A stretch of 64,000 nt of DNA from an uncultured Actinomycetota bacterium (GCA_963761655.1 CAVXHI010000010.1:137400-201399), one strand, 5' to 3'; positions 19,073-60,051 are shown, counted from the stretch's first letter. Numbers and translations are program-made. Notes: generated by a model from the letters alone, not told the origin.

Positions 19073-19085
19073 AGCAGTGCTCCTG

Positions 19086-20162: not shown

Positions 20163-20363
20163 GAGGTCCTCCAGGGGGACGCGGCTCGTGGGCGCTGGGT
20201 GCGCACCTGCGACGAGGCCGTCGTCGTCGTCGCCGACTCTCGGGCAGACGCCTGGCGGACACGATGGTCATCGCGGGTCCGTCTCGTCAGGCGCCGTCGT
20301 CAGGTCGCGTCCGATTTGCATGACCCGTTCGGGTGAGGCCCTCGACGGACCGTGAAGAGGCGG

Positions 20364-28995: not shown

Positions 28996-29070
28996 GGGCT
29001 GCTCCTCGATCGGTCGCGCAGGGGGGGTAGCGCCTCCATCGTGTCAGACACGTGCGACACGCCGAACGGC

Positions 29071-29098
29071 TCAATCTGCGCCGCGCTGCTGCCGAGGC
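29071..29098 (+). promoter_or_regulatory. Candidate sigma-WhiG/sigma28-type promoter of the DUF4388 gene
   Basis: TCAA-N16-GCCGAGGC, 37 nt upstream of the GTG, which has a GGGAGG RBS. Confidence 0.6.
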
Positions 29099-29135
29099 TC
29101 CCTGTGCAGCCGCAACGACGACAGGGAGGTCGCAC

Positions 29136-31941
29136 GTGCTCAAGGGCGACCTCGCCGTGACGCCGCTCGCCGACGCCCTCGTCCAGCTCTCCGGCGGCGC
29201 CGCGACCGGCTGCCTGCGCGTGCTCGACCCCGTGGGCGAGGAGGCCAAGGTCTACCTGCGCGGCGGGTCGGTCTACGCCGTCCTCGTGCCCGGACGCCGC
29301 CCGCAGCTCGGCTCCCGCCTGGTCAGCTCCGGCACGCTCGCCCCCGAGGCGCTCGCCGAGGCCCTCGAGGCCCAGCGCACCGAGCTCCAGGGCTGGCGCC
29401 TCGGCGAGCTGCTCGTGCACCTCGGCTACGTCGACCAGGAGGTCGTGGAGGCCTTCGTCCACGAGCAGGTCCTCGCCGCCACCTGCGACCTCGTCTCCTG
29501 GACCTCCGGCACCTGGCGCTTCCGCCCCAACGAGCGCACCCGCGAGGACGTCGCGCCGCCCGTCGACGTCCCGACCCTGATGGCCGCCGTCGCGCACCGC
29601 ACCGCGTCCTGGACCTCGATCGTCGCCGTCGTCGACGGTCCCGACGCCGTCCCCGTGCTGTCCGCCTCCGGCGGAGCCTCCTCCGAGACCGTCGTCGGTC
29701 CGGACGCGTGGTCGCTGCTGTGCAAGGTCGACGGCGTCCGCACCGTGGCCGAGCTCTCCCGCGACTGCGGCTTCACGCTGTACGAGGCCGGCCAGACCGT
29801 CCACGAGCTGGTCGACGCCGGGCTCGTGGAGATGTCCGACCCCTCCTCCGCGGTGGAGGAGCCCGCCCCCGCCTTCCTGCCCGGTGACCTCGCCTCCCGG
29901 CTGACGGCCGCCTTCGCGCCCTCCACCCCCGACGTCGCGCCCTCCGCCCCCGCCGAGCCCGTCGACGTCGCCGCCCTGATCTCCTCCGCTCTCCGCGAGC
30001 CCCCGGCCGACCCGCTCGACCAGGTGTCGGCCGCCCTGTCGGCCCTGCTCGGCCCGGGGCCGTCCGGCGAGGACGCCTTCGTCGTCCCCGCCCGCCGGAC
30101 GCCGGTCAAGACGCCCGAGCAGCTCGCCGCCGAGCAGGCCCGGGCGGAGAAGACCGAGCGCGACCGGCTGCGCCGGTCCCGCGACGCCGCCGAGCTCGCG
30201 GCCGCCCAGGCGGACCTCGAGGCCGGCCGGCTCGCGCAGCAGCAGGAGGCCGAGGCTGCGCTGGACGCGGACCACGTCGCGGAGGTCGTGGACCTGCAGG
30301 CGGCGCGCGAGGCGGCCCGGGTGGCGGCTGCCGAAGCGGAGCGGGTCGAGGCGGAGCGCGTCGAGGCGGAGCGGGTCGAGGCGGAGCGGGTCGAGGCTGA
30401 GCAGGCCGCGGCCGAGGAGCAGGCCCGGCTCGAGGCGGAGCGAGTCGCCGCGGAGCAGGCCGCCGCCGAGGAGCAGGCACGGGTCGAGGCTGAGCGCGTC
30501 GAGGCTGAGCGCGTCGAGGCTGAGCGCGTCGAGGCGGAGCGGAACGCGGCCGAGGAGCAGGCCCGGCTCGAATCCGAGCAGGCACGGGCCGAGGCGGAGC
30601 GAGTCGCGGCCGAGCAGACCGCCGCCGAGGAGCAGGCACGGGCCGAGGCCGAGCAGGCCGCCGCCGAGGAGCAGGCACGCCTCGAGGCCGAGCAGGCCGC
30701 AGCCGAGGAGCAGGCACGCCTCCAGGCCGAGCAGGCAGCCGCCGAGGAGCAGGCACGCCTCCAGGCCGAGCAGGCCGCCGTCGAGGAGCAGGCACGCCTC
30801 CAGGCCGAGCAGGCCGCAGCCGAGGAGCAGGCACGCCTCCAGGCCGAGCAGGCCGCAGCCGAGCAGGCACGGGCCGAGGCTGAGCGAGTCGCGGCCGAGC
30901 AGGCCGCGGCCGAGCAGGCGCGTCTCGAGGCCGAACGAGTCGCGGCCGAGCGAGCGGCGGCCGAGCAGGCCCTGGCGCAGGAGCAGGCGCGGCTCGAGGC
31001 CGAGCGGGCCGCGGCGGAGCAGGCGCGGGCGGAGGCCGAGCGGATCTCCGCGGAGCGGGTCGCCGCAGAGCAGGCCGCTGCCGAGGAGCAGGCACGGCTC
31101 GAGGCCGAGAGGGCAGCGGCGGAGCAGGCGGCGGCGGAGCGCGCCCGGCTCGAGGCGGAGAGGGTCGAGCAGGCCCGCGCGGCCGAGGCCCTGCGGGTCG
31201 CCATCGAAGCGGAGCGCCAGCGCGAGGCGGAGCGGCTCGCCGAGGAGCAGGCCCGCCACGAGGCCGAGCAGCAGCGCCTCCAGGCCGACGCCGCCCAGCG
31301 CCAGGCCGAGGAGCAGGCCCGCGCCCAGGCCCAGGCCGCCGCGGACGAGCAGGCCCGTCTCCAGGGCCGAGGAGCAGGCCCGCGCTCAGGCCCAGGCCGC
31401 CGCGGACGAGCAGGCCCGCCTCCAGGCCGAGGAGCAGGCCCGCGCTCAGGCCCAGGCTGCGGCCGAGCAGATCGAAGCCCAGCGCCTCGCCGAGGCCCGT
31501 GCGGAGGCGCAGGCTCTCGCCGACGAGGCAGAGGCGCGTGCCCGCGCGGAGGAGCAGCAGCGCCTGGCCCAGCAGCAGGCCGACGAGCTGGCCGCCTCCA
31601 CCCAGCCGGTCGGCCCGCCCGTCGACCACGAGCAGGCCTTCGCCGCCTTCGCCGAGCTCCGCGCCGCCGCCGACAGCGCCCCCGAGGTGCAGGCGGACGA
31701 GACGCCGGAAGCCGACCAGGTCGAGCCCGCGGTCGAGGACGAGCCCTGGCAGCAGCCCTGGGGCGCGGAGGAGACCGACACCGCCTCGCTGCTCCGCGAG
31801 CTCTCGTCGCTGGGCCTCGACGACGACGCCCCGCCGCCCCCGCCGGTCCGCCCGCCCTCCCAGGCACCGACCCGCCCGACCTCGTCGGCGGCCACGGCAG
31901 CGGCGGGCAAGAAGCGCAAGGGCCTCTTCAGCCGCAGCTGA
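29136..31941 (+). CDS. DUF4388/PatA_N-like protein with long E/A/Q/R coiled-coil stalk (frameshift near 31365)
   Basis: LKGDLAVTPLADALVQL...TGCLRV...LGSRLV...LGELLVHLG...WTSGTWRF; repeats AEQAAAEEQARL; tail DTASLLRELSSLG...KKRKGLFSRS. Confidence 0.75.
30330..31460 (+). repeat. Intragenic tandem repeats (15-nt EAERV, 39-nt AEQAAAEEQARLQ and 60-nt units)
   Basis: GAGGC(G/T)GAGCG(C/G)GTC arrays and GCCGAGCAGGCCGC(C/A)GCCGAGGAGCAGGCACGCCTCCAG arrays. Confidence 0.85.
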
Positions 31942-32093
31942 GCGGCAGGCGCGCCGGGTCGTCAGACCGGGTGCAGCCGGACCTCGTGAGCTGGTGAAGG
32001 CAGAGCGCCCTCGGCGGCCGGCGCCACGGAGGAGGACAGCCTGCGGGTCACCTCGGAGTCGAAGCGACAACGCAGTGCGGTCTCGCGCGCCCG

Positions 32094-33017
32094 TCAGAAG
32101 CGGAGCAGTCCGGCTCTCGCCGCTGCCGCAGCTCTCGCCGGCGACACCGGGGCGTCGTCGGCCGGTGCCGGGTCGACTGCGGCCGCGACGCCTCCGGCGA
32201 CCAGCTCGGCGTCGTCGGGGACCTGCCGCTTGACCAGCGCGAGCGCCACGGGCCCGAGCTCGTGGTGCCGCGCCGCCGTCCCGACGAACCCGACCTCGCG
32301 CTCGCCCATCAGCACGGGAGCACCGTGCGGGGGGAGCTCGCTGTCGCTGCCGTCCAGGTGCAGCAGCACGAGCCGGCGGGGCGGCCGCCCGAGGTTGTGC
32401 ACGCGGGCGACCGTCTCCTGCCCGCGGTAGCAGCCCTTGTCCAGGTGCACCGCCCCCGACAGCCAGCCGACCTCGTGGGGCAGCGTCCGGTGGTCGGTGT
32501 CGAGCCCGAGACGGGGACGCCGGGCGGCGACCCGCAGGGCCTCCCAGGCCAGGACCCCGGCGACCGGCCCCTCCCACGCCTCGAGGTCCTCGGGGGCGAG
32601 GAGCCCGCGCGACGTCCACACCCGCTCAGGGGAGAGCTGCACCGTCACGCGGAGCATGAACTGCATCCTCTGCAGGAACGCGACCAGCGCGGGGCCGGTG
32701 CCGGGCTCGACCACGACCCAGGTCGTCTCGCCGTCGTCCTGCAGCACGAGGTGGTGCTCGACGTGGCCCTGCGGTGAGAGCACCAGGCCCTCGACGGGCT
32801 CGGGCCCCAGGCCCAGCACGTGCTGGGACAGCAGGGAGTGCAGCCAGGTCAGCCGGTCCGGCCCGTCGACGCGGACGACGTCGTGGTGGGACAGGTCCAC
32901 CAGCGCCTCCCCCGCCTCCAGCAGCCGCTGCTCCCGGTAGGGGTCGCCGTAGTGCCCGGCGACGCCGGCGTCGGGCGGGTCAGCGGGGACGGCACCGGGA
33001 CGCGACAGGAGGCTCAC
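32094..33017 (-). CDS. ygfZ: Folate-binding YgfZ/GcvT-family protein
   Basis: HYGDPYREQR, signature KGCYRGQE. Confidence 0.93.
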   Translation of the reverse strand: MSLLSRPGAVPADPPDAGVAGHYGDPYREQRLLEAGEALVDLSHHDVVRVDGPDRLTWLHSLLSQHVLGLGPEPVEGLVLSPQGHVEHHLVLQDDGETTWVVVEPGTGPALVAFLQRMQFMLRVTVQLSPERVWTSRGLLAPEDLEAWEGPVAGVLAWEALRVAARRPRLGLDTDHRTLPHEVGWLSGAVHLDKGCYRGQETVARVHNLGRPPRRLVLLHLDGSDSELPPHGAPVLMGEREVGFVGTAARHHELGPVALALVKRQVPDDAELVAGGVAAAVDPAPADDAPVSPARAAAAARAGLLRF

Positions 33018-33076: not shown

Positions 33077-34138
33077 CTAGCGGATCCGGACGCGCACCTT
33101 GGGGCTCGTGCCGGCGGCGTTGTCGTTGTCGACCCCGGTGCCGGTGAACAGGTCGTAGGTGGCGTTGCTGCCGAAGGTCCGGGTCACGTTGTAGGTGCCC
33201 GTGGAGCTGACCCGGGCGCGGCTCGCGATGACGCGCTTGCCGCCCGGCGGCTGGTAGAAGACCGTGACCAGCTGGCCCTTGCGCTTGGGCAGCGTGCTGC
33301 CGGTGAAGCGGTAGGTGCGGGTGCCGGTCCGGGTGACCTTGAGGTTGAGGTCGGTGCGGACGGTGAGGACGGTCGTCTCGCTCATGACGCCGCCGCTGAG
33401 CACGTAGAGGCGGGTGTTGCCGCTCGGGCCGACCTCGAAGCTGAAGTCGCCGTTCTCGTCGGCCTCACCGCTGCGCACCAGGACGTAGTCGGTGCTGGGG
33501 CGGCTGTAGGCGTAGAGCTCGACGGCGGCGCCGGGCTGGGCCGTCCCGGTGACCAGCGACTTCTGCTTCGCGGTGATGGTCGCGGGCGTGACGTCGACGG
33601 TCGGGGTGGCCGCCTGGGCGGGGCCGCTCGGGCTGGGCGTCGTGCTCGCCGTCGGGGTGGCCGAGGCGCTGCCGCCGCCGCCCGGGACGACGCAGGGGAC
33701 GCCCGGCACGGGGATCGGGCAGGCCGCGGGGCTGGTGGTGGGGCTGGCGCTGCCGGACGGCTGCGGCGTCGTCGTGGCACTGGGCGAGGCGCTCGCTCCA
33801 CCACCACCGCCGGGCGGGGCGAGGCAGGTGCCGTCGACGGGGACCTCCAGCCCCGGGCACGCGGTGGCCGAGGGACTCGCGGACGGGCTCGTCGTCGGGC
33901 TGCCGGTGGCGCCCGTGCTCGGGGTCGTCGTCGGCGAGGCGCTCGCCCCGCCACCGCCGGGCGGTGCCAGACAGGTGCCCGCGACCGGGACCTCGACGCC
34001 CGCGCACGGCGTCGCCTCGGCCACGGGCAGACCGGGGACGAGGGCCGACGTGCCGGCCGAGGCGCTGAGGGTGGTCCCGGCGACGGTGGCAGCGACGACT
34101 GCTCCGACCAGGCCGATCACGAGGCGAGGACGACGCAC
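33077..34138 (-). CDS. Secreted protein, paralog 3 (Cys-loop repeats, PTS linkers, shared C-terminal domain)
   Basis: GGAG RBS + GTG; signal peptide VRRPRLVIGLVGAVVAA; AYSRPST...GPSGNTRLY...YRFTGSTLPKRKGQLVTVFY. Confidence 0.8.
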   Translation of the reverse strand: MRRPRLVIGLVGAVVAATVAGTTLSASAGTSALVPGLPVAEATPCAGVEVPVAGTCLAPPGGGGASASPTTTPSTGATGSPTTSPSASPSATACPGLEVPVDGTCLAPPGGGGGASASPSATTTPQPSGSASPTTSPAACPIPVPGVPCVVPGGGGSASATPTASTTPSPSGPAQAATPTVDVTPATITAKQKSLVTGTAQPGAAVELYAYSRPSTDYVLVRSGEADENGDFSFEVGPSGNTRLYVLSGGVMSETTVLTVRTDLNLKVTRTGTRTYRFTGSTLPKRKGQLVTVFYQPPGGKRVIASRARVSSTGTYNVTRTFGSNATYDLFTGTGVDNDNAAGTSPKVRVRIR

Positions 34139-34175
34139 GGGCTTCTCCAGGGGTTCGGGGTGGGCTGAGTGTGGC

Positions 34176-36155
34176 TCAGCCGAGGACGGCACGGAGCCGG
34201 TTGCTCTCGTTGCCGGCGTTGTTGATGTCGGTGCCCGTGGCGGTGAACAGGGTGACGGTGCCGCCGCCGGAGAACCTCCGGGTGACGTCGTAGGTCCCCT
34301 TGGCCGACACCCGGGCACGGGCGGCGATCACCCGGCTGCCGCTCCCGGACGAGTAGAAGACGGTCACGAGCTGGCCCGACCGCTTGGGGAGCGTGCTGCC
34401 CGTGAAGCGGTAGGTGCGGACCCCTGTCCGGACGACCTTGAGGTTGATCGACGTCCGTACCGTCAGGACGACGCTCTCGCTGTCCTGCCGGCCGCTGCCG
34501 TCGACGCGCGTGGTGCGGACGAACAGGCGGGTGTTGCCGCTCGGCCCGACCTGGAAGCCGATCGTCCCGTCCTGGGTCGCCACCCCCCGCCGCACCACGA
34601 CGTACCGGGTGCTGGGCCGGCTGTACGCGTGGAGCTCGACGATCGCTCCGGGGAACGTCGTCGCCCGGACGCCGACCCCCTCCTGCGAGGTGATCGTGCT
34701 CCGCTCCAGCGTCACGACCGGCCGGACCGTGGCGGTCGCGGTGCTGGGCGGCGGGGACGGCGCCGCCGCGACGGTGTGCGTCGAGGAGTCCGAGCAGGTC
34801 CCGGCGGGCGTACCGGAGGTCGCTCCGGTACCCGCGCCCCGGGCCTGCGTGCACTGCGTCCTGGACGGCTCGTCGAGCGCGACCTTGACGATCTGCGTCC
34901 CGGCCTCGCCGGCCGTGGTCAGCACCGTCGCGGTCGCGACGCCGGTGTCGTCGGTGACGAGCGCGGTCGCGGCGAGCTGTCCGGGCCCGACCTCCGTCGC
35001 GGTGAGGGCGGCCCGGCGCACCGCTGCCCCGGTCGCGGCGGTGACCGTGGCGCGGAAGCTGCGGGTCTGGCCGGACACGGTCGTCGCGGCCGACGGCGTC
35101 AGCTCGACGAAGCGGGCGAGCGAGGCGTCGACCGGGGCCAGCGTCGTCGTGCGGGTGATCTCGTCCTGCGGCTCGGAGGGGTCCGGGCCGACGGTCCCGC
35201 CCGCCTGCTGCACCCAGACCTGCAGCGTGTCCGTCCCGGTCCTGGTACCGCCGAACGTGCAGGTGGCGACCCCGGCGTTGCTGCTCTCCCCGCACCCGGA
35301 CCGCACCTGGTCGGCCGGCGCGGCGTTCGGCCCGCTCCCCACGCGGAGCAGGGGCGTCACCCCGGCGACGACGTCGCCCGAGCCGTTGCGCAGCGTCACG
35401 GGGATCGTGGTCGTCGCGCCCTGCTGGGCGGAGGCGGCCTCGGGCTCGGCGTCCAGGCTCCGGACGGCCTCGACCGCGGCGTCGGAGCCGGGGAGGCCGC
35501 CGTTCGAGAAGGTGGCCCGCCCCTCGGTGAGCAGCTCGCCGGTGTCGGCCGTGCCGTTGCTGTTGCGGTCCAGGAAGGCCTCGACCCGGGCGCCCCCAGC
35601 GGTCAGCCCGGCGACCCCGATGCGCACCACGCCGCCCGAGTAGCCGTACTGGGCGACGTCGACCCCGGTGGGGTTGTTGCTGTTCGGCGTCTGGCTGGGG
35701 GCGGCCCCGGCAGCGTCGGCGGCGACGTCGGGGTTGCCGCCCGACGCCGGGCGGGCCGGGTTCGGGGTGACGCTCGGGCCGGGCGCGTAGGACTGCGTGC
35801 TCCCCGGCGTGGCCAGCGGCCCGACGGCGGTCCCGGCGTTGGTGTACGTCGCTCCCGAGGCCGGCGGGGTGGTCTCGGGGGTCGTGCAGAAGTCGACGTC
35901 CTGGCTCGGGCCCTCGGGCAGCTCGGTCAGGCGCACGGTCGCCGTCGCGGCGTCGGTGGCCTGCACGCCCCGGGCGTCGACGGGCTGCAGGGTGACGACC
36001 AGGCAGGTGCCGGCCGCGCCCGCGACGGACGACAGTCGCAGCGCCGTCGTCGCGTCGGCCTGCGCCGGGCCGGCCAGGAGGGCGACACCGGCGACGACGG
36101 TGGCAGCCGCGGTCGAGAGCGAGACGGCCAGCCGGCCGGAGGACGAGCGGGTCAT
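34176..36155 (-). CDS. Secreted protein, paralog 2 (Ig-like domains, DxNxNG Ca-loop, shared C-terminal domain)
   Basis: GAGGAG RBS; signal peptide ending AQA; DRNSNGTADTGE; AYSRPST...GPSGNTRLF...YRFTGSTLPKRSGQLVTVFY. Confidence 0.82.
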   Translation of the reverse strand: MTRSSSGRLAVSLSTAAATVVAGVALLAGPAQADATTALRLSSVAGAAGTCLVVTLQPVDARGVQATDAATATVRLTELPEGPSQDVDFCTTPETTPPASGATYTNAGTAVGPLATPGSTQSYAPGPSVTPNPARPASGGNPDVAADAAGAAPSQTPNSNNPTGVDVAQYGYSGGVVRIGVAGLTAGGARVEAFLDRNSNGTADTGELLTEGRATFSNGGLPGSDAAVEAVRSLDAEPEAASAQQGATTTIPVTLRNGSGDVVAGVTPLLRVGSGPNAAPADQVRSGCGESSNAGVATCTFGGTRTGTDTLQVWVQQAGGTVGPDPSEPQDEITRTTTLAPVDASLARFVELTPSAATTVSGQTRSFRATVTAATGAAVRRAALTATEVGPGQLAATALVTDDTGVATATVLTTAGEAGTQIVKVALDEPSRTQCTQARGAGTGATSGTPAGTCSDSSTHTVAAAPSPPPSTATATVRPVVTLERSTITSQEGVGVRATTFPGAIVELHAYSRPSTRYVVVRRGVATQDGTIGFQVGPSGNTRLFVRTTRVDGSGRQDSESVVLTVRTSINLKVVRTGVRTYRFTGSTLPKRSGQLVTVFYSSGSGSRVIAARARVSAKGTYDVTRRFSGGGTVTLFTATGTDINNAGNESNRLRAVLG

Positions 36156-36189
36156 GCGGCTCCTCGGGGGCCGGGACGGGCCGTGGCCT

Positions 36190-36216
36190 GCGCCCGGGGC
36201 GGGAGGCCCCGGGCGC
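36190..36216 (-). terminator. Intra-operon hairpin after the first cassette gene
   Basis: GCGCCCGGGGC-GGGAG-GCCCCGGGCGC 11-bp perfect stem. Confidence 0.6.
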
Positions 36217-36226
36217 GTGGCGCGGA

Positions 36227-38209
36227 CTAGCGGATCGTCGTCCGGACGCGGTTGCTGTTGTTGGCCTCGTTGTCGTTGTCCCGGCCGGTGCCGGTGAACA
36301 GGACGAACGTGCCCGTGCCGCCGAAGGTGCGCGTCACGTTGTAGGTGCCCTGCTCGGTGACCCGCGCCCGGCTGGCGATCGTCCTCGCCCCGCTGCTGTT
36401 CTCGTAGAACACGGTGACGAGCTGGCCCCGGCGCTTGGGCAGCGTGCTGCCGGTGAAGCGGTAGGTGCGGGTGCCGGTGCGGACGACCTTGAGGTTGATC
36501 GACGTCCGGACCGACAGGACCACCGTCTCGGGGTTCCTGACCGTGACGCCGCCGCGCGTGCTCTGGGCGTACAGGCGGGTGTTGCCGCTCGGCCCGACCT
36601 CGAAGGCGTAGGTGCCGTCGCTGTCGATGACGCCGGTGCGCACGCTCTTGTACTGCGTGTTCGGCCGGCTGTACGCGAAGATCTCGATCGTGCTGCCCGG
36701 CGTGCCGGTGCCGCTGACGACCGACTTCTGCGAGGCCGTGATGGTCGACGGGGACACCGTCACCGTGGGGGTCGCCGGCCGCGTGTCCACCGTCTGCGTG
36801 GCCGACGGCGTGGGCGACGGCGCTGCGGGGGTCACGGTGTAGCAGTTCGTGCAGACCGGGGAGGCGACGCCGTCGGTGCGCGTGGCGGTGACGTTCCGGT
36901 CACCGACAGCCGTGCCCGGGGCGACCGAGAAGGTGGCCTTGAGCTGGGTGTCGCTGAGCAGCTGGACGGCCGTGGTGGTGACCCCGGCGCCGCTGACGTC
37001 GACCCGGGTGCCCTTGGCGAACCCGGTGCCGGTGACGACGAAGCTCTTGGTGGAGCCGACGGCCTGGCTCTTGTCGGTGCCGGCGGTCGCGGTGTCGCTG
37101 TCCAGCGAGGTCACCGTGGTGACCCGGCTCGGGGCCTGGTCGACGGTGAAGGTGCAGCCGCAGGAGTTCGAGCTGCCGTCGGTGTTGCGCACGACCGGCA
37201 GGTAGCGAGCCGGCGCGGCGTTGCGGAGGTCGAAGTCGGCCGTGTACGTGGTGGCGGTCGGCGTCGAGACCAGCGTGCCGCGGATCGTCAGGGCCTCGCG
37301 GGTGCTGGACCCCGGCTCGGCCGTGTACTGCAGGAACGGCGTGCCGGTCTGGCTGAGCCCGGAGCCGGTGAAGACCACGCGGGTCAGGGCCGGCCTGACG
37401 GCGGGGTCGTTGTTGCCGCCGGGCGGGTTCGTGCTGGTCAGCGGGGCGCCGTCGACGAAGAAGCCGCGCGACAGGGTCGTGGTCTTGCCGTTGAGGTTGG
37501 TGACGCGGACGTCGCGGGCGCCGGTGGCCGTGCCGGGAGCGACGGCGACGCGGCGCTTGAGCGCGGTCTTCGTCGTGATGCCCTCGGCGCTCTCGTCGAC
37601 GTCGACCGTCGCGTTGTCGTCCGCGGGGGCCGTCACGGTGATGCCGCGGTCGACGGTGCTGGTGCCCGGCACGAGGAACTCGACCGTCGTGCCGCGCTCG
37701 AAGAAGTCTCCGGAGAGGGTGACGGGGGTGGCGCCCGAGCCCGTCTGCACGCCGTTCGGCGACAGGGCGGTCAGGACGAGGCTCGGGTCCGCCTGGACCA
37801 CGAAGCAGGACGGGCAGTCGACGGTCTGCATGAAGGCGTTCGTCGTCGTCACGGCGTAGGTGCCGGCGTCGATCGGGCCGTCGAGACCGAGGCCGTCGCC
37901 GGCGTCGCGGAAGTCGACGGTGGAGGTGCCGGTGGTGGTCGACCCGCTCGGCATCCCGGGCGTGATGGTCGCCGTGAAGGTGGACGACGGCTGGCCGACC
38001 CGCGTGAACGTCGCCGTCCGGCCGGGGGTGAACGGCGTCCCGTTGGCGTTCGGCGCGAACATGAACGTCAGCGCCTTGCTCTCGGTGTTGAAGGCGCTGT
38101 TCGGGTTGACCGTCAGACCGGCGGCCGAGGCCGAGGTGGCGAGGAGCACGCCGGCACCGACGGCGGCTGCCGTCAGGCCGGCGAGCAGGGGCAGAGAGCG
38201 CAGCTTCAC
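36227..38209 (-). CDS. Secreted protein, paralog 1 (IPT/TIG-like Ig repeats, shared C-terminal domain)
   Basis: AGGAG RBS; signal peptide ending ASA; VTLSGDFF and VVTGTGF Ig-type strands; DCPSCF, SCGCTF, VCTNCY; AYSRPNT...GPSGNTRLY...YRFTGSTLPKRRGQLVTVFY. Confidence 0.82.
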   Translation of the reverse strand: MKLRSLPLLAGLTAAAVGAGVLLATSASAAGLTVNPNSAFNTESKALTFMFAPNANGTPFTPGRTATFTRVGQPSSTFTATITPGMPSGSTTTGTSTVDFRDAGDGLGLDGPIDAGTYAVTTTNAFMQTVDCPSCFVVQADPSLVLTALSPNGVQTGSGATPVTLSGDFFERGTTVEFLVPGTSTVDRGITVTAPADDNATVDVDESAEGITTKTALKRRVAVAPGTATGARDVRVTNLNGKTTTLSRGFFVDGAPLTSTNPPGGNNDPAVRPALTRVVFTGSGLSQTGTPFLQYTAEPGSSTREALTIRGTLVSTPTATTYTADFDLRNAAPARYLPVVRNTDGSSNSCGCTFTVDQAPSRVTTVTSLDSDTATAGTDKSQAVGSTKSFVVTGTGFAKGTRVDVSGAGVTTTAVQLLSDTQLKATFSVAPGTAVGDRNVTATRTDGVASPVCTNCYTVTPAAPSPTPSATQTVDTRPATPTVTVSPSTITASQKSVVSGTGTPGSTIEIFAYSRPNTQYKSVRTGVIDSDGTYAFEVGPSGNTRLYAQSTRGGVTVRNPETVVLSVRTSINLKVVRTGTRTYRFTGSTLPKRRGQLVTVFYENSSGARTIASRARVTEQGTYNVTRTFGGTGTFVLFTGTGRDNDNEANNSNRVRTTIR

Positions 38210-38302: not shown

Positions 38303-38746
38303 CTATCCGACAGGTCCGACACAAGCCCGACAACGGCCGAAGACGGTCAGGTGCCCGAGGTCGACGACGAACCCGCGCCGACGCTCCAGCTCCTCCGCGA
38401 TCCCGACGACGGCGGACCGCTCGACCTCCTCCACCCCGCCGCAGTCGCGGCACACCAGGTGCAGGTGGTCGTCCTCGGCCGCGACCGACCAGGTGGGGCT
38501 GCCGTGCCCGAGGTGCGCGTGCTGGACGAGCCCGAGCTCCTCGAGCAGCTCCAGGGTCCGGTAGACGGTGGAGATGTTGACGCCGGCCGCCTTCTCGCGG
38601 ACCGCCGTGGCGATCTCCTCCGGCGTGGCGTGCCCGAGCGTGCCGACCGCCTCGAGGACGAGCTGCCGCTGCGGTGTCAGCCGGTACCCGCGCGCACGCA
38701 GCTCGGCCTGCCAGTCGTGCCCCACTGCCGGCACGGTGCGACCCAT
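38303..38746 (-). CDS. nur: Fur-family regulator, Nur-like
   Basis: DWQAELRARGYRLTPQRQLVLEAV...HATP...NISTVYRTLELLEELGLVQHAHLGHG closely resembles Streptomyces Nur; HLVCRDC, GRCRAC. Confidence 0.8.
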   Translation of the reverse strand: MGRTVPAVGHDWQAELRARGYRLTPQRQLVLEAVGTLGHATPEEIATAVREKAAGVNISTVYRTLELLEELGLVQHAHLGHGSPTWSVAAEDDHLHLVCRDCGGVEEVERSAVVGIAEELERRRGFVVDLGHLTVFGRCRACVGPVG

Positions 38747-38764
38747 GGGGGCAAGACTAGGTCC

Positions 38765-39565
38765 GTGACAGTCCTCGTGGTGCTCGGTCCCGACGGTCCC
38801 GTGCTCGCCGATCCCGGGGCCCCCCTGCTCCGCGCCGACGACGCCGGGGTGCTGCGCGGGGAGTCGGTCTTCGAGACGCTCCGGATCGTCGACGGACGGG
38901 CCGCTTTCCTGGCGGCGCACCTGGCCCGGCTGGGGGTCTCCGGCTCACGGCTGGCCCTGGACGTGCCGTCCCTCGAGGACGTCGTCGCGCTCGGGCTGTC
39001 GGCCTGGCCCGACCCCGACGGCGTCCTGCGCCTGGTCGTCACCCGCGGCGGGACGGCGTACGCGCTGCTCACCCCCCTGCCCGCTCCGGTGACGTCGGTG
39101 ACCGCGGTCGTGCTGACGCTGGGCGTCCCCGCGGCCGTGCGTGCCGAGGCGGCCTGGCTGCTCGGCGGCGTGAAGTCGACGTCGTACGCCGTGAACATGG
39201 CGGCGCTGCGGGAGGCGCAGGCGCGGGGCGCGGACGACGTCGTGTTCGCGTCGTCGGACGGCGAGGTGCTGGAGGGTCCGACGTCGACGTGCGCGTGGGT
39301 GACCGGCGGCGTCGTCGTCACCCCGCCCGCGGCCGACGTCGGGATCCTGCCCGGGACGACGCTCGACGCGACCCTCGCGGCCTACGACGGGCCGGTGGAG
39401 GTGCGGCGCGGGACGGTCGAGGAGCTCCGGGCGGCCGACGAGGTGGTGCTGCTGTCGTCGGTGCGCGGGGTGGTGTCGGTGACGGCGCTGGACGGCGTGG
39501 CGGTGCAGGCGGGGCCGGTCGGGAGAGCGCTGCAGGCGGCGTTCCAGGCGGCGCTGCGTCCCTGA
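38765..39565 (+). CDS. Class IV PLP aminotransferase / aminodeoxychorismate lyase-like
   Basis: RGESVFETLR, HLARL, VKSTSYAVN, EGPTS, GILPGTT, SSVRG. Confidence 0.88.
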   Translation: MTVLVVLGPDGPVLADPGAPLLRADDAGVLRGESVFETLRIVDGRAAFLAAHLARLGVSGSRLALDVPSLEDVVALGLSAWPDPDGVLRLVVTRGGTAYALLTPLPAPVTSVTAVVLTLGVPAAVRAEAAWLLGGVKSTSYAVNMAALREAQARGADDVVFASSDGEVLEGPTSTCAWVTGGVVVTPPAADVGILPGTTLDATLAAYDGPVEVRRGTVEELRAADEVVLLSSVRGVVSVTALDGVAVQAGPVGRALQAAFQAALRP

Positions 39566-41532: not shown

Positions 41533-42128
41533 CTAGACCGAGGATCGCGGCGGCCTCCGCCATCGCGCGTCGTGGGCGACCAGCGCTGCCAGCGGAGCGA
41601 CGCGGACTGCGCAGGCCAGAGTGCACGGCGTCGAGGCTGCGCAGGACCTGAGGTCCGAGCGTGCCGGCGAGGTCCAGCAGTCGGCGTCGAGCCGGACGAG
41701 GGCGAGCGCGTCGAGCAGCCGCTCCGCCGCCGTCAGCGGAGCGACGCGCGCTGCGCAGGCGCTCGCCACCCGACGACGGGAGCGGCAGCGAGGTAGGTCG
41801 GAGCGTCTCCGTCTCGTCCTCCGCACCAAGTAGCTTCACCAAGGCGCTGGTGCCGAGGCAGACGGTCACCGCTCGTCAGCGCGGAGCGCGGACAAGACCG
41901 CGGTGGCGGACACGGCTGTGACAGCGGGTACGACGTCGAGCAGGTCACCCGTGCCCTCGACGACGAGCCCGGCCTCGACCAGGTCCCGCCACGGGAGAGC
42001 CGGGACGAGGCGGACGACGAGCCGGCCCCCGGTCGGTCACCTCGACGCTCCCGCCTGCCTCGACGAGGGCCAGGTAGCTGTGGCCAGTGCCTGGCGTAGC
42101 CGCACGCACTATAACACGAACCTCCATG
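41533..42128 (-). pseudogene. Phd/YefM antitoxin + VapC PIN toxin pair, multiply frameshifted
   Basis: Antitoxin YLALVEAGGSVEVTDRG; toxin VCLGTSALVKLL...LRSLDAVH...AMAEAAAILGL. Confidence 0.65.
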
Positions 42129-42195
42129 TGCTGGCAGGCAGCACCTCCCAGCACAACCGGGCGCCCACTGGCTGCTTCGTGCCTCGTCTCACGTA

Positions 42196-42210
42196 CTAAC
42201 TCTGAGTGAC
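42196..42210. promoter_or_regulatory. Candidate BldD box
   Basis: CTAACTCTGAGTGAC fits NTNACNC(A/T)GNGTNAN at every defined position. Confidence 0.55.
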
Positions 42211-42220
42211 TCCTCATAGC

Positions 42221-42248
42221 TAAAGATGACTAGAGCGGATGCCGATCT
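42221..42248 (+). promoter_or_regulatory. Candidate sigma-WhiG/sigma28-type promoter at the start of the polysaccharide island
   Basis: TAAA-N16-GCCGATCT; GGAGGAG RBS and ATG at 42281 downstream. Confidence 0.68.
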
Positions 42249-42280
42249 GGGGTGTGCCTACCCGCGCCCGGAGGAGTCCC

Positions 42281-43155
42281 GATGGCCCAGCTCACTCTCG
42301 CCCGCTGCCCCACGGTCACCGGTAAACGCCATCGAGCGCGCCCATGCAGCTCGTGCCGGCGCTCGTACCCCTCGACAGCTTCCGCTGCTAACGTGCGGAT
42401 CGACGGCTGCACGCTGCAGGACGCCGTCCGCCTGCTTCTGCGGCGCTCGCGCTCAACCAGCGGCTCCGCGTCGACCTGTGCAACGCCTACACGATCGCCC
42501 TCGCCGAGCGTCGCAGCGACTACCAGCGCTCGTCGAGCGCAGCGCGCCGAACCTGCCGGACGGCACGCCGCTCGTGTGGGTCCGCCGAGACCTGGGCGTC
42601 GACGTGCAGGCGGCCACCCGCGTGCTGTTCCTCAGTCGTCGACCAGGTTTGGACTCTGCGTGAGGGCGTCGGCGGTTCCCGGTCCTTCGTTCACTACTTC
42701 TACGGCGGGTCCCCCGAGCAACGCGTCATTGTCCTGGTCGAGGAGCTGAAGGAGACGCGTCCCGGACGCGGTCGTCGTCGGACAGGAGAGCCCGCCCTTC
42801 CGCGAGCTCAATGAGGTCGAGCGCCTGGAGACCAGGCAGCGGCTCATCGACAGCGGGGCCGACGTCGTCTGGGTCGGCCTGGGCACACCCCTGGGTCAGG
42901 ACGTGGTGGGTGACGAGTTCGCGTAGTCTGCGCCGGCGGCTTCGCGCCCGTCGGCGTGGTCCTTCCACTGGATAGCCGGCACGAAGACGATGTCCCCCTC
43001 GGGATCGAGGGGACCGGGCTCGTGCTTGCCGTACCGGCTGGCTTGCGAACCTCGGCGCCGCTGGCCTGCTGCTACCTCTCGGCAACGTCCTCTTCCTGCT
43101 GGTGGCACAGCGACGTAGCCACCGCGTGCCTGCGCGTGCTCAGATCGGGCGGTGA
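42281..43155 (+). CDS. WecB/TagA/CpsF-family glycosyltransferase (multiple frameshifts)
   Basis: Fragments CNAYTIAL, NLPDGTPLVW, HYFYGG, ESPPFREL, ADVVWVGLGTP. Confidence 0.72.
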
Positions 43156-44367
43156 CCCGCCTGCGAGTGCTCGTCGCTCCCCAACTGGTACGTCTCGCGC
43201 AACCCCTCTGGGGAGAACGTCGTGGTCGACGCCGAGGGTGGCGCTGCTGCGAAAGCGCGGCCACGAGGTGGTCGAGTACCAGCGGAGCAGCGACGAGTCG
43301 AGGGCGGGGCGCTGGGCCCCTGGGCTCGAGCCGCGCTCTCCGTCGCAGCGGTCCGCAGCCTCAAGTGGCGTCCGGCGACGTCGCACGCCTGATCGCTCAT
43401 CACCGACCGGACGTGCTGCACCTGCACAACCCCTACCCGGTCCTTCTGCCCCCCGGGCGCGGGGGTACTCGGCCCGACAACGCCGGCATCCTCGTTGTGC
43501 AGATGGTCGACATTTGATCGGCACAGCTGCATGAAGGGCACGCTCTACCGCGACGGCAGGCCGTGCGAGGAATGCGTGGGCAAGACGCCGCTGTCCGGGG
43601 TGTGGCACGGCTGCTACCGGGTCTGCGCGCTCAGCCTTGCGGTCATGGCCGCCTTCCCTCACGGCGCACCGGGGCACGCGGGCGTCGGTGGAGCGCGACC
43701 GGGTGACTGCACGGAGTTCATGGGGCTACCGGCTTGCCCCGGGCTGGCTTCCCCCGACACCGGGCTGGCGTTCCGGCCGCAGGCCGTCGCCTATCCTGGT
43801 TCCCCCCCGTGCGGCTGGGCAGGGGCGCCGTGTTCGTCGGACGGTTGGACGACGAGAAGGGCGCGGGCCTCCTGCTGGACGCCTGGGAGCGGGTCGGCGG
43901 CAGGCTCCCGGCCGGCGCACTGGCGGCCTGGAACTGCTGGAATACGGGCCGCTCGGTGCCCGCGCTGCCGCGGCAGCAGCATCTGGCACTGGCGTGGAGT
44001 GGCGGGGCCGACAGCCAGCGAATGAGCGTGTAGCGAGCGCTGAAACAGGTTGCCTCGCGGTCGTTCCCTCCCGCTGCTACGAGGGAGCCCCCGTCGTGCT
44101 CCAGAACGGAGGCGCTGGCCGTCGGTCGGCCGCTCCTGGTCACCTCGGGGTGGCGTCCTGCCCGAGCTGGGGGCAGACGCCGCCGCCGTCTCCACCCCCG
44201 AGGCTGCGGCGCTCGCCGGCGTCGCCCTTGTCACCGCTCTCGGCCGGGACGACACGGGCCTTGCGCACCAAGCCGCCGCCGCTCGCTCCCGCTACCTGCT
44301 GCGACACACGGAAGAAGCCCTCGGCGCCCTGCTCGAGCTGCCCCTCCGACGACGTGCCAGACGGTGA
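43152..44367 (+). CDS. GT4 glycosyltransferase (multiple frameshifts)
   Basis: GENVVV, RPDVLHLHNPYP, RHSCMKGTLYRDGRPCEECVG, FVGRLDDEKG, VVPSRCYEG. Confidence 0.68.
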
Positions 44368-44378
44368 GGTAGGTAAAG

Positions 44379-45400
44379 GTGTACGACGTCGACGGGCTCA
44401 ACCCCTATGGGCGAGAAGTCGGCCTGCTCATCGCGGGACAGCCCAACGGGTGCTCGCGTTTCTCCGTCCTCGACACGGGCTTGGTGGCCCGACGGGTTGC
44501 GGTGCTGGCCCCTGCGCGTTCCTGCAACTTCGGGGGAGCCGCAACGACACAGGCGCTCCGGCAGTTGGCCGGCCTGCTGGTCGTCGCCTGGAACGCCCTC
44601 GTCCAGCGACGCACCGTCGTCGTTTGCCTCGACTCGCGACCTGGAAACGACGACGAGTCGGTACGCGCTGCCGTCGCCCGGCTCGGCGGACGGGTCGTGG
44701 TCGTCGCCCATGACCCCGAGCCCAAGAGTCTGCTGTCTCGGCGGCAGCTCTTGGGCCGCTCACTCCTGTGGCGGGCAGCGCACCGCCTGCTCACGCACGG
44801 CCCCGTCCTAGCGACCCAGGCCAGCGCCATCGCGGGCCGGACCGCGCTCGAGGTACCGCACCCGCCGTTCTGCGGCTGGGCGGCTCAGGTCTCTCCACGA
44901 CAGGCGAGCGACACGACGCGCTCGTGCTGGTCGGGCACCTCCGACCCGCAGAAGGGCATCGACCGGCTGCCTGCGCTGCTGAGCCTGCTGTCCGACGCGG
45001 ACCGCGAGCGCTGGCACGCTGTCCTTTGCCGGACGCGGAGACCTCGCAGGAACGCTCGCGAAAAATCTCTGCGCTAGTGCTGGTCGTGCGCGAGCCGAGC
45101 AGCGGCCTCCTCCCGGACAGCGAGCTGGGCGGCAGCCCTGGCCGCGGCCGACGTCCTGCTGGCTCCGTACCGCTCGGCGAGCGCCTCTGGCAGCGTGGTG
45201 CTGGCGCGGAGCCTCGGGCTGCGCGTGCTGGCCTACGACGCGGGTCCCTGCGCGACGTGTCCTCCCGCCGTCCTGGTTGGTGCCACCGCAGGACGAATCT
45301 GCCTTCGCCGAACGCCTGACTGCGTTGCTCCACGGGGACCGGAGCGAGGGCAGAGCGGCCTGGACGAGTGGCGGCAGCGCAGTGTCAGCGCTCTGGGTCG
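44379..45400 (+). CDS. Probable glycosyltransferase (frameshifted, end approximate)
   Basis: VAHDPEP, QKGID, DVLLAPYRSASASGSVVLARSLG. Confidence 0.55.
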
Positions 45401-46501
45401 GGATGCTCGAGCTGACCTGGCGCCAGAGGAGGGCCAATCGCTCGGCGAGGACTCCGGGCGAGATCCGGGCGAGCTACCTGCTCGCGCGCCTGGCTCGCCA
45501 GAAGACGACGCTCCTCGGGGTGCTCCAGCAGGTGCCTCAAGACGGCCGCCAGCGCCTCGACGTCGCCTCCTCGTGCACGATGACCCCGAAGCGACCCACC
45601 ACCTCAGGGAGCGCCCCGCTGTCGCTGACGACGACGGGCGTGCCGGCCCACATCGCCTCCACCACGACGCGCCCGAACTGCTCGACGACGTGCTCGAGGG
45701 TCCGGCTCCTTGGCACGACCAGGACGTCGATCGACGCAAGGTAGGCGGGCACGTCGCCCGGCGCGCACAGGCCGGACCAGTCCACGTCGACGCCGAGGCC
45801 TTCGGCCACTCGACGCAGCGCCCCCTCGCCCGGCGTCGCGTCTGTGATGGCGACCGGGAAACCAGCCCGACAGCGGTCCGTCGATGAGCAGGCGGTTGAT
45901 GCCCTTCTGGTGATCGAGGCGGCCGAGGAAGCCGATCCGGGGCCGTTGTCGGGAAGCGTCCGCCTGCGGCAGCGGGGCGGCACCACGGCGGGGACGACCA
46001 GGCCCGGCGTGCTGCTTGGCAGCCCGTGCTGCTCGGGCCAGGGCGAGGCCCCGGGCGTTCCAGGAGCCACAGCTGCGCCTTGGTGCGCTTCAGGTTGCGC
46101 CGTGCCAGTCGAAGCCGGACAGCGTCCTCGACGCGCCTGCCGTGCCGGAACAGGTTGTCCGCTCCGTGCAGCACGACCGGTACCGGCAGGCCCAGAGCCC
46201 GTCCCGCCACCACGGACCAGCACTCGGCGTGCACGTGCACGACGTCGGGTCGGACCTGGCGCACCAGCCGACGGAGCCCGTCGTAGTGCCACCAGATCTG
46301 CCCGCGGCCGCCAGCCAGGTCGCGGGTCCGCAGCAGCGTGGACGGAGCGAAGGCCGGCTGCTCCGGCTCCGAGCGGAACACCTCGAGCGGCGGCACTCGG
46401 GCGCTCGCCACGAGGTGCAGGTCGACGACGCCGGCGGCCGCTTCCCAGACCGCCCACGTCGGGGGCTCGAGCACGTTCGTGACGACGAGTACCCGTGTCA
46501 C
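45380..46501 (-). CDS. GT4 glycosyltransferase (frameshifted, end approximate)
   Basis: RPDVVHVHAE, DVLVVPRS...EQFGRVVVEAMWAGTPVVVSDSGALPEVV. Confidence 0.72.
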
Positions 46502-47607
46502 GCGCCCAGGACCGCCGTCGTCAGCGTCTGACCGATCACGCGCCAGTCGTAGCGCCGCACCGCCTGCCTGCCGGCGTCGGCGAGCGCCTGTCGGCGCGCT
46601 CGGTCGACCAGCAGACACTCCACCTCTGCAGCAAAGGCAGCCGGCCCCGACGCGACGACCACGTCACGCCCGGGCTCGAGGTCCAGGCCCTCGATGCCCT
46701 TGGGCGTGGCCAGCACAGGTCGTCCGGCACCGAGCGCCTCCAGGACCTTGAGACGCGAGCCCCCCCCGCTGCGCAACGGCGCAAGCACGAGTGCGGCCCG
46801 CTCGAGGTGCGGGGCCACGACCGGGACCTCGCCGAGGACCTCGACGGAGGAGTGCGACGAGAGCCGTGTCGGCAACTGGTCCGCAGCTCGTCCGACGACG
46901 GTCAGGACGCGGCCGGGAAGTCGCGGGGCGATCTCCTCGACCCACCAGGCAACGGCCTCCACGTTGGGTGCGTAGTCCAGCGCACCAACGAACAACAGGG
47001 TTCCGAGCTGTGGGACGGCCGTCACGCTGGGCGGCAGATCGGCACCGTTCGGCACCACGGTGCACGCCACATCCAGGAGGTCGGCGTCCCGCTGCGTGGT
47101 CACCACCGGCACGACCCCAGGCCGTCGCACCGCTCGACGCTCCGCCCGTCGGCGGGCCACAGCGTCCAGTTGCTGCTCGGCCGATCGCCAGCCCCTTACA
47201 GGTCCGCAGCGCCCGAGATCCGCCTCGGCGTTGTGCAAGCTCAGGACGTGACGAGCGGGCGGCGCGTACGGCGTCGTGTCCAGGTGATCGAGCACGACGA
47301 CCGCCCCGTTGCGTGCAAGGCCGGCGACGACCCGGGCGGCGGCGGGGTCCCATGCACGAGCCGTACCGAGCGGCCACAGACGTCCCGCGGCCAGCAGCCG
47401 CGCAGGCACGCCACTGCGGCCGGCGTGGACGTGCACCTGAACGGCACCGGTGGCGTCCTGCAAGGCCTTCGGCTCGTCGACGCCTGCGATGGACACCAGG
47501 TGCAACTCGCTCCTCGCGGCGAGCGCCTGGGCGAGGCGGAGTGTCCGCACCGTCCCCCCGCTGCGCGGGAGCGCGTGCACCTGGGCGCTCACCAGGACCG
47601 TCCGCAC
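46498..47607 (-). CDS. GT4 glycosyltransferase
   Basis: VVPNG, FVGALDYAPN, PLRSGGGSRLKVLEALGAGRPV, YDW. Confidence 0.85.
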   Translation of the reverse strand: MRTVLVSAQVHALPRSGGTVRTLRLAQALAARSELHLVSIAGVDEPKALQDATGAVQVHVHAGRSGVPARLLAAGRLWPLGTARAWDPAAARVVAGLARNGAVVVLDHLDTTPYAPPARHVLSLHNAEADLGRCGPVRGWRSAEQQLDAVARRRAERRAVRRPGVVPVVTTQRDADLLDVACTVVPNGADLPPSVTAVPQLGTLLFVGALDYAPNVEAVAWWVEEIAPRLPGRVLTVVGRAADQLPTRLSSHSSVEVLGEVPVVAPHLERAALVLAPLRSGGGSRLKVLEALGAGRPVLATPKGIEGLDLEPGRDVVVASGPAAFAAEVECLLVDRARRQALADAGRQAVRRYDWRVIGQTLTTAVLGA

Positions 47608-47712
47608 GCCCTGTCCTCCGTCCGACCGTGTCCGCGCCCGAGGGTAACGCTCAGGTCGATGAGACTCTCGACCGAGCAAAGACCTGGGCTCGAACCTGCC
47701 GCGAGGAGCCGC

Positions 47713-48587
47713 GTGGACGACGCCAGCCCTGCCGTGACCGCGGTCCTGCTCGACCTACCAGCGAGCAGCGGCCCTGCGCGAGAACCTGCCTCGCCTGCTG
47801 GCTCTGACCGGCGTCGATCGAGTGCTGGTGGTCGACGACGGCTCGACGGACGAGACGGCCCAGGTGCTTGCGGAGATGGCGGGCCCCAGACTGGTGGTGG
47901 TTCGCCACCCGATCAACAAGGGGCTGCCGGCCGCACGGAACACGGGGGCAGCAGCAGCGGGGCACGCCTTGGGTCGTCTACCTGGAGGACGACTGCGGTT
48001 TCCCCCCCGACTGCGTACCGCAACTCGTCGCTGGAAGCCGAAGCCACCGGCGCTGCGATCGTCGGCGCCCCCTGGTTCGGGGTGTCGGAGGAGCACGTGG
48101 CCGAGGAACGTGCACGCCAGTTTCCGACGCGCTGTCCCTCCGGGTGCAGAGCCCGCCATGGACGGTTCCCGACGGGCCCGTCGAGACCCCTTTCCTGCCC
48201 GCGCTCGCTCTGGTCCGGCGGGACGTCGTGCTCGAAGTCCGGCAGACGACGAGGGACTGCGGGGCAACGCCTGGCGCGAGGAGACGTCCTTCTTCACCGC
48301 TGCTGCCCGCGCAGGACACCGGGTCGTCCTCAGCCCGCCACGGACCTGCAGCTGGCAGGCCGGCACCTTCACCGGTGGCGCCCGGTCAGGGGTCCTGCGG
48401 TACGAGTACTGGACGTGGCGCAACAACTGGCGTTTCCTTCGACGACACGGCGCCTGGCTGCACGCGCAAGGCATGGTGCGGACTCCCTGCGCTCGAGCAG
48501 GCGTCGTTCTGCTGGTCACGGCGCCGCGACCTCGTCGGTCAGGTGCGGGCGCGCCTTGCCCCGCTGGTCCGAGGCCCTCGCGGATGA
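47713..48587 (+). CDS. GT2 glycosyltransferase (frameshifted)
   Basis: VLVVDDGSTD, NKGLPAARNTG, YLEDDC, GNAWREET. Confidence 0.75.
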
Positions 48588-51375: not shown

Positions 51376-51412
51376 GCACCTGCGAAACGCGCTGCCCCGT
51401 CTCTGGACCGCG

Positions 51413-52590: not shown

Positions 52591-52595
52591 CGGGC

Positions 52596-53815: not shown

Positions 53816-53822
53816 GGAGCTC

Positions 53823-60016: not shown

Positions 60017-60051
60017 GGATCTCCTCAGGCGTACCGGTTGGTCTCGTGGAG

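Follow-up and report, generated by a model that had tools for sequence, protein, structure and literature searches.

An arginine-rich C-terminal domain shared by secreted proteins of an uncultured actinobacterial family, a candidate non-covalent cell-wall anchoring module

Nearly all that is known of how Gram-positive bacteria hold proteins at the cell wall comes, as far as the catalogue in Table 1 of PMC5817068 extends, from Firmicutes, with a small number of cultured actinobacteria besides. Triplets of CWB2 repeats are an established non-covalent anchor that attaches surface proteins of Clostridioides difficile to the anionic polymer PSII (PMC5817068). Here we describe a domain that resembles CWB2 in its placement. 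It was found in a window of 64,000 nucleotides (the whole stretch of DNA that was analysed) from an uncultured Actinomycetota bacterium (GCA_963761655.1, CAVXHI010000010.1:137400-201399), where three tandem genes, called A, B and C in this study, encode secreted proteins that share a C-terminal domain (CTD) of about 175-180 residues; the N-terminal part of each protein before the linker is referred to as the head. CTD is a new family within an already well-known kind of module, and is a member of no family against which it was tested. On balance, we consider it probable that CTD, as a module particular to this lineage, anchors proteins to the cell wall non-covalently by binding an anionic polymer of the envelope.

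Like CTD, CWB2 is a terminal module carried by many paralogous secreted proteins with varied heads, as in the Cwp and SlpA proteins of C. difficile and in wall proteins of actinobacteria and Bacillus, and CWB2 actually substitutes for CTD on homologous heads. The two differ in that CWB2 consists of three repeats of about 90 residues, alpha/beta in structure and forming a pseudo-trimer, with no sequence match to CTD, whereas CTD is modelled as one all-beta pair of Ig/fn3-like domains; in addition, CWB2 in these genomes may be N-terminal too, while CTD is always C-terminal. The SLH (PF00395), GW/SH3-8, LysM and WxL domains are also modular and found on unrelated secreted proteins, and several of them are basic and recognise wall polymers. 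However, CTD is present as a single copy rather than as a repeat array, and its predicted fold is unlike that of SLH, which is helical, and that of LysM, which is beta-alpha-alpha-beta. Generic bacterial Ig-like domains, such as Big_6, Big_3_5, CarboxypepD_reg, bMG3 and SdrD_B, and fn3 pairs share the predicted fold of CTD, but these are internal repeated spacers, whereas CTD is a fixed pair of domains at the end of the protein, with a strongly basic composition and conserved motifs of its own. Finally, LPXTG sorting signals recognised by sortase and the C-terminal domains of type IX secretion resemble CTD in that a wide range of unrelated exported proteins end in them and are thereby marked for the cell surface. 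The LPXTG route differs in that its motif, membrane span and basic tail are all absent from genes A-C, and the genome runs a separate sortase system; no partner enzyme for CTD was identified among the neighbours of the 17 copies in the genome. Conserved surface arginines are noted for both SLH and CWB2 in PMC5817068.

The three genes and their shared elements, in DNA of 72-78% G+C, are arranged as follows, the genes being defined by open reading frame (ORF) and translation.

36227-38209, minus strand: gene C, 660 aa, with signal peptide, IPT/TIG-like repeat head (residues ~30-470), Pro/Ser/Thr linker and CTD
34176-36155, minus strand: gene B, 659 aa, with signal peptide, head without a catalogued family, linker and CTD
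33077-34138, minus strand: gene A, ~353 aa, with signal peptide, Cys-containing repeats in a Pro/Thr/Ser/Gly-rich region and CTD
36230-36769, minus strand: CTD of gene C, residues 481-660, isoelectric point (pI) 11.0, the copy used for the AlphaFold model
34179-34721, minus strand: CTD of gene B, residues 479-659, pI 11.6
33080-33604, minus strand: CTD of gene A, residues 239-413 of the long ORF, pI 10.0
33281-33328, unstranded: first copy of a 48-nt identical block, encoding the conserved core TGTRTYRFTGSTLPKR
36431-36478, unstranded: second copy of the block, identical to 33281-33328

The initial annotation of this DNA had described three co-oriented genes for secreted proteins with unrelated passenger regions and a highly similar C-terminal domain, and our analysis bears this description out. 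All three are minus-strand ORFs whose products have one hydrophobic segment each, at the N-terminus (19-residue Kyte-Doolittle windows reach 1.6 only at residues 4-16), and the same scan finds no C-terminal membrane segment in genes A, B or C. Pairwise BLASTP among the three heads gives no similarity (best E 4.1). Over 180 columns, the CTD of gene C shares 60% identity with that of gene B and 67% with that of gene A, the mean column identity being 77%, and the motifs quoted in the annotation are visible in the alignment; the identity of the 48-nt block at its two positions was likewise confirmed. The ORF of gene A is open up to 34318, but its probable start is a GTG at 34138, because a GGAG precedes this codon and a hydrophobic signal segment directly follows it; its length is thus corrected from 413 to ~353 aa. 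Gene A also contains an internal direct repeat of 69 nt (33801-33869 and 33948-34016, 80% identical). The labels 'IPT/Ig' and 'Ca-loop' that had been given to the heads were checked in part: the TIG/IPT cut-off is reached in the gene C homologues P0010, P0168 and P0098 but not in gene C of the window itself, where the NCBIfam choice-of-anchor Z repeat (NF058597, CoaZ_rpt_PGGG) matches residues 377-450 with 29.2 bits (E 7.2e-7), under its cut-off of 30.

A hidden Markov model (HMM) of the three C-termini had been expected to recover many unrelated secreted proteins with the domain strictly at the C-terminus, and this is what was found. The genome (4.10 Mb in 11 contigs, 86.7% complete) holds 17 CTD ORFs, 15 of which end within 13 residues past the domain; the two exceptions are a weak match (E 1.5e-6) and an ORF (L021, G000:C3:27524-29161, minus strand) that continues for 211 aa past the domain, apparently by read-through. 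Its tail resembles the antisense of a neighbouring gene and could have arisen through loss of the stop codon or through misassembly. On contigs C3, C2 and C8, three other CTD ORFs have no signal peptide in frame, which may be due to frameshifts upstream. When a profile of 16 CTD copies was searched against a library of 1.84 billion protein cluster representatives, 1857 matched at E<=0.001, 692 at E<=1e-10 and 222 at E<=1e-30. The position of the domain was measured in a set of 167 proteins, made up of the 150 library matches listed, matches from protein collections and the window's own proteins, with one protein standing under two ids. The distance from the end of CTD to the C-terminus is at most 5 residues in 152 of them, 6-15 residues in 10 and greater in 5, so that in this well-scoring family the domain is not internal but stops no more than 15 residues short of the C-terminus in 162 of 167; none of the 167 has two full copies. 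In five proteins (P0169, P0170, P0172, P0200 and P0201) the second half of CTD is interrupted, at about positions 121/122, by an insertion of 15-30 residues that contains Cys and splits the HMM match in two.

Nor is CTD the product of a single recent duplication, another finding that would have spoken against the annotation: at E<=1e-10 it is present in 38 of the 78 genomes of the same GTDB family, each of which has between 1 and 22 matches where the domain occurs, and the cassette is kept in two genera. By genus, it is found in all 4 genomes of the organism's own genus (g1), in 8 of 9 in g5, 2 of 2 in g75, 12 of 20 in g4, 9 of 23 in g2, 2 of 2 in g3 and 1 of 4 in g73, and in none of those from eight further genera of the family; these tallies count G175 only as a genome without a match. 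In a sample of the order 14 of 201 genomes matched, nearly all from the same GTDB family, and in a sample of the phylum 14 of 400 other genomes gave weak full-length matches (E 1e-9 to 1e-15). At eight distant loci from other actinobacterial families, the last copy lies within 11 residues of the stop codon in seven, and three have two tandem copies; 10 of their 12 copies have a pI of 9.5-11.8, the other two being at 8.0-8.2 and 5.3.

CTD is strongly basic. Its median pI is 11.1, exceeding 9 in 98.8% of 165 copies, and its median net charge is +12, with arginine at 10.9% and lysine at 1.0% of the composition, and tryptophan at 0.4%. The heads are acidic (median pI 4.8 in 113 proteins), and the 30 residues ahead of CTD consist of P, T, S, A or G to 80% at the median. 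Across 151 aligned copies, arginine is kept in at least 82% at positions 35, 44, 65, 97, 101 and 147, and a basic residue in at least 70% at positions 88, 113, 122, 136 and 160. Because only three positions are acidic in at least 40% of these copies, most of the conserved arginines would be unable to pair in salt bridges, and a conserved cationic surface is likely from the alignment. The heads to which this domain is joined are mostly extracytoplasmic enzymes or adhesin-like repeats. Pfam families that exceed their cut-offs on the heads of this genome are subtilase S8 with PA, M6/InhA-like, DUF11 and M14. In the library, 68 of the 95 proteins of at least 400 aa were scanned, and 38 had a family while 30 had none; no such family covers CTD above its cut-off. 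The families seen there are S8, M14, M28, sedolisin pro-domain, amidase, DUF4394 with Calx-beta, Rv2525c-like, GHL15, GSDH, metallophosphatase, NIDO, fn3, Big_1, Big_7 and TIG.

A key indication of what CTD may do comes from proteins that have a homologous head and another end. A search with the head of gene C (residues 30-470) returned 21 proteins; among the 16 closest (E<=1e-43), 10 end in CTD, five (P0168, P0173, P0174, P0175 and P0177) in three CWB2 repeats (PF04122, 140-165 bits) followed by a Pro/Ser-rich tail, and one (P0176) in a different triple repeat. The signal peptides are alike in all forms, and a complete CWB2 form is present in G247, which is from the same GTDB family as our genome. 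In a maximum-likelihood tree of 19 gene C-type heads the module types are interleaved: one clade with 100/99 support contains both CWB2 and CTD forms, another with 98/96 support joins the third module to a CWB2 form, and the tree requires at least four changes of module type, three of them between CTD and CWB2. A constraint that keeps all six CWB2 forms in one group, named after the tree had been inspected, costs 91 log-likelihood units, and a single CWB2 clade is rejected by the approximately unbiased (AU) test (p-AU 1e-82). The head of gene B has 25 homologues, of which 23 end in CTD; one of the other two has the third module, and the last has neither.

This third module is a C-terminal domain in its own right, made of three tandem repeats of about 110 aa with the motif ...LDTR...LNVT.T...GF..YP.G...PGTSNVNF...QTQANEV...V.LF...H.I.D.VG. 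(for example in L053, G000:C2:1037103-1038131, and in P0176 and P0190), and its triplet layout recalls those of CWB2 and SLH. It has no Pfam match at E<=1. At least nine ORFs of the genome carry it (L053 and at least eight others), none of them in the window, and seven end within about 16 aa beyond it. Of the 78 family genomes, 50 contain it, beside either CTD or CWB2, and it substitutes for CTD on both gene B-type and gene C-type heads.

CWB2 itself is present in 11 of the 78 family genomes: three have both modules, 35 CTD only, eight CWB2 only and 32 neither. Among the 18 genomes with at least five CTD genes, 17 lack CWB2 repeats and one has a single repeat, and the seven genomes with at least nine CWB2 repeats have no or one CTD gene; G183, the sole g5 genome without CTD, has nine CWB2 repeats. 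Such separation of heavy CTD users from heavy CWB2 users is suggestive only, the genomes being related. A Spearman correlation of copy numbers over the genomes with either module (rho -0.58) was rejected, since selecting on 'either' forces a negative correlation.

Sequence comparisons place CTD in no catalogued family. In a 2025 copy of Pfam and NCBIfam release 20, scanned with the whole proteins and with 16 isolated copies, no family reaches its cut-off on CTD. Sub-threshold Pfam matches lie on its first half and are all generic Ig-like: Big_6 in 4 of 16 copies (best E 7.8e-5; on the CTD of gene C 21.4 bits against a cut-off of 27.6), CarboxypepD_reg in 2 of 16 (best on another CTD protein of the genome, 22.4 bits against 32.3). 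On gene A, bMG3 likewise stays below its cut-off (12.6 bits against 34.9). CWB2 (PF04122) gave no match in genes A-C at E<=1, in the 16 copies or anywhere in the genome, and models of SLH, LysM, WxL and SH3 type gave none at E<=1 in the three proteins or the 16 copies, although WxL and WxLIP_PGBD were matched in other genes of the window, so the scan was able to detect them. A regular expression for LPXTG followed by a hydrophobic span and a basic tail, run over all ORFs of the genome, found none in genes A-C. These scans agree with the initial annotation, in which LPXTG, SLH and LysM motifs had been said to be absent. In a comparison confined to the domain models, no type IX C-terminal domain of Pfam or NCBIfam matched CTD. 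Relatives in protein collections, all from metagenome-assembled genomes (MAGs) labelled Frankiales, Frankiaceae, Mycobacteriales or Actinomycetota bacterium, are named 'hypothetical protein' or after their heads, and none has a precomputed Pfam domain over CTD. Among the papers listed in a literature search, with supplementary files outside its scope, no description of the domain came up.

An AlphaFold2 model of the gene C CTD, built on an alignment of 53 rows, is all-beta and of high confidence (predicted local distance difference test, pLDDT, 97.3; predicted template modelling score, pTM, 0.85). It consists of two beta-sandwich halves, ~1-88 and ~90-180, each of seven to nine strands, which superpose on solved Ig/fn3 pairs as a tandem Ig/fn3-like unit. 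Structure searches with Foldseek and VIA-align returned generic tandem Ig/fn3 pairs and single Ig domains only (210 chains at Z>=8), the best match to the whole model being the tenascin fn3 pair 1qr4_B (Z 11.6, root-mean-square deviation, rmsd, 2.7 over 163 aa), with the adhesin extender 6xi3 and the Bap C region 7dm0 among further matches. The C-terminal domain of PorU (6za2_B) superposes on the second half only (Z 10.6, rmsd 2.3, 91 aa), tied with many unrelated Ig folds. The predicted fold by itself carries no functional message. Designed Symfoil beta-trefoils, which came up in a profile search of the PDB over ~36 residues (E 4e-5), were judged a chance motif match, the model not being a trefoil.

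Based on these results, we propose that a CTD protein would be exported via its N-terminal signal peptide by the Sec route, that the flexible Pro/Thr/Ser-rich linker would set the acidic functional head apart from the rigid Ig/fn3-like pair at the C-terminus, and that the conserved arginine-rich surface of this pair would bind an anionic polymer of the envelope, most likely a secondary wall glycopolymer. The three genes of the window would then form one conserved cassette of CTD-anchored surface proteins. Both the binding to the wall and the ligand are what we infer, given that CTD is single, strictly terminal, basic, present on diverse heads and exchanged with CWB2. The last point lends indirect support to the initial annotation, in which the domain had been read as an anchoring tag, since CWB2 repeats bind the wall and replace CTD on homologous heads.

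Several observations weigh against this proposal. The predicted fold is generic, being that of tenascin, adhesin stalk repeats and the Bap C region, and is uninformative on function. Exchange of modules is shown for one head family only, and the group used in the AU test was chosen with the tree in view. In G258, the CWB2 proteins, encoded by 22 ORFs or fragments that lie in 11 regions, have no BLASTP match at E<1e-10 among the CTD proteins of our genome, and S53 peptidases with either module are just 30% identical. The anticorrelation of CTD and CWB2 by presence and absence is not significant (Fisher p=0.19, with genomes that are kin and not independent), and G167, G247 and G259 have both. 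No gene recurs in the neighbourhood of the 17 CTD copies, other CTD genes excepted. Two links to wall polymers suggested in the initial annotation gained no support. One was to the nearby polysaccharide island: its DNA (42001-62000), compared with the 78 family genomes, is not conserved even within the genus, in a weak test that scored three candidates per genome and matched only an ABC ATPase segment and a segment at ~60.3-61.2 kb. The other was co-occurrence with TagA: TagA/WecG (PF03808) is found in 10 of 38 genomes with CTD and 6 of 40 without it (p=0.27). The TagF-type family PF04464 was not found in the genome, at its 86.7% completeness. Furthermore, the genome already has two sortases and, from 33 matches to the LPXTG expression among its ORFs, about 25 convincing LPXTG-type ORFs, and an extra anchor is not strictly needed. 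Because these are present, CTD would be an additional route and not a replacement for sortase.

Other roles for the domain should also be considered. It could be a target-binding module that acts like a carbohydrate-binding module and directs secreted proteins not to the producer's own wall but to external anionic material, such as walls of other microbes, plant or fungal polymers, extracellular DNA, or humic or mineral surfaces. Actinobacterial hydrolases with carbohydrate-binding modules have the same layout of catalytic head, linker and C-terminal beta-sandwich as CTD proteins, many of which have hydrolase heads, and no polymer gene on the producer's side co-varies with CTD. However, a common external substrate is hardly expected for one module that sits on very different enzymes and on non-enzymatic Ig/TIG proteins, a conserved aromatic platform is absent (tryptophan is the 0.4% given above), and the module that takes its place on homologous heads, CWB2, anchors proteins to the cell's own wall. 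We regard this role as unlikely, if by no means far-fetched. It is less likely again that CTD is an inert structural domain, a stable stalk, folding aid or protease-resistant cap without a specific ligand, whose charge merely balances the acidic heads. Spacers are internal and variable in number, whereas CTD is single and terminal in nearly all of the 167 proteins; specific arginines are kept in at least 82% of copies; and the domain is replaced by wall-binding repeats rather than merely lost. These features have to be set against the facts that Ig/fn3 pairs are common spacers in surface proteins, that the best structural matches are stalk repeats and that the sub-threshold Pfam matches are all to generic Ig-like families.

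We find it improbable, too, that CTD drives self-assembly of its carrier proteins into an oligomer or an S-layer-like lattice, the alternative put forward in the initial annotation. The tandem cassette is kept in two genera, and multi-copy surface families with one module do resemble the Cwp/SlpA proteins of C. difficile as these are presented in PMC5817068, but up to 22 different heads per genome are unlike one lattice protein, and no single dominant paralogue is identifiable. Least probable in our view is a cleavable sorting or pro-domain, recognised by a dedicated system for export, attachment or maturation and then removed; parallels are the Ig-like domains in which substrates of type IX secretion end and the pre-peptidase domains at the C-terminus of secreted proteases. 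The strict C-terminal position and the many protease heads would suit such a role, as would the superposition of the second half on PorU, were it not shared with so many unrelated Ig folds. It is hard to reconcile with the common non-protease heads, the lack of a recurring partner gene near the 17 copies, a size of 175-180 aa with more than ten conserved basic positions, which is far beyond known sorting tags, and exchange with CWB2, a binding module and not a sorting signal.

The cassette is flanked by the following genes.

32094-33017, minus strand: gene for a YgfZ/GCV_T-type folate-binding protein (Pfam GCV_T and GCV_T_C)
38303-38920, minus strand: gene for a FUR-family regulator (Pfam FUR, 85.1 bits)

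The trio between fur and ygfZ is kept in the same genus (G236 and G235) and in genus g75 (G244), with ygfZ adjoining the cassette in all three. In G057, which has no CTD, fur lies directly beside ygfZ, 108 bp apart, in keeping with the statement in the initial annotation that nur and ygfZ are neighbours in Streptomyces; in G141 the distance between them is ~1.9 kb. The CTDs of the cassette are 44-70% identical among themselves and only 35-40% to the remaining copies of the genome; they are an old subfamily, not a recent duplication. A second tandem trio of CTD genes is located on another contig. A search for related loci with the CTD alignment found five. Two match over their full length and share a contig in an uncultured Actinomycetota MAG, where they represent the G235 copy of the cassette; the other three are short matches in unrelated MAGs (E 1e-4 to 5e-4). 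A scan for promoters and terminators gave nothing exceeding shuffled controls, and a look-up of sequencing runs returned none.

Several further features of the window were noted. The island at 42-64 kb contains glycosyltransferases, an ABC ATPase, Wzy_C, DUF4012 and a sugar dehydratase. A fragment of TagA/WecG at 42741-43067 on the plus strand (PF03808 positions 61-166, 34.3 bits), with internal TGA and TAG codons, looks like a broken remnant at the edge of this lower-G+C polysaccharide island. At 18053-20267 on the minus strand, a WxLIP_PGBD gene (18053-19096) and a WxL gene (19089-20267) are adjacent; this pair of surface proteins, here in an actinobacterium, is known mainly from Lactobacillales and Bacillales in the account given by PMC5817068. 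A 990-aa ORF at 5174-8146 on the plus strand ends in an LPXTG-type sorting signal (TLPTTG, hydrophobic span, RRR), so that both anchoring routes would be present in the window. A DUF4388 protein of ~980 aa at 29052-31997 on the plus strand has a very long Ala/Glu/Gln/Arg-rich repeat region (AEEQARLEAE...), and all overlapping frames there are open because of this composition.

Modules of this kind are already well known, and the anchoring role of CTD is a matter of inference. Even so, neither Pfam nor NCBIfam has a model for this large family, which numbers 1857 clusters at E<=0.001 and as many as 22 copies in a single genome and behaves like an anchor in an uncultured lineage. We speculate, though we hold this broader view to be rather doubtful, that this actinobacterial family has a wall-anchoring system not known before, in which CTD is the protein half and its conserved arginine surface recognises a single kind of anionic secondary wall polymer; strains might then switch whole sets of surface proteins among CTD, CWB2 triplets and the third triple repeat as wall chemistry changes, and the type of module might serve as a genomic read-out of the type of wall polymer in organisms that have never been grown. 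CTD might also serve as a tag for surface display and as a handle with affinity for these organisms' wall polymer. Once the family is named, hundreds of 'hypothetical proteins' could be annotated as predicted surface proteins, and CTD, CWB2 and the third module together provide a natural system for studying anchor swaps in surface proteomes.

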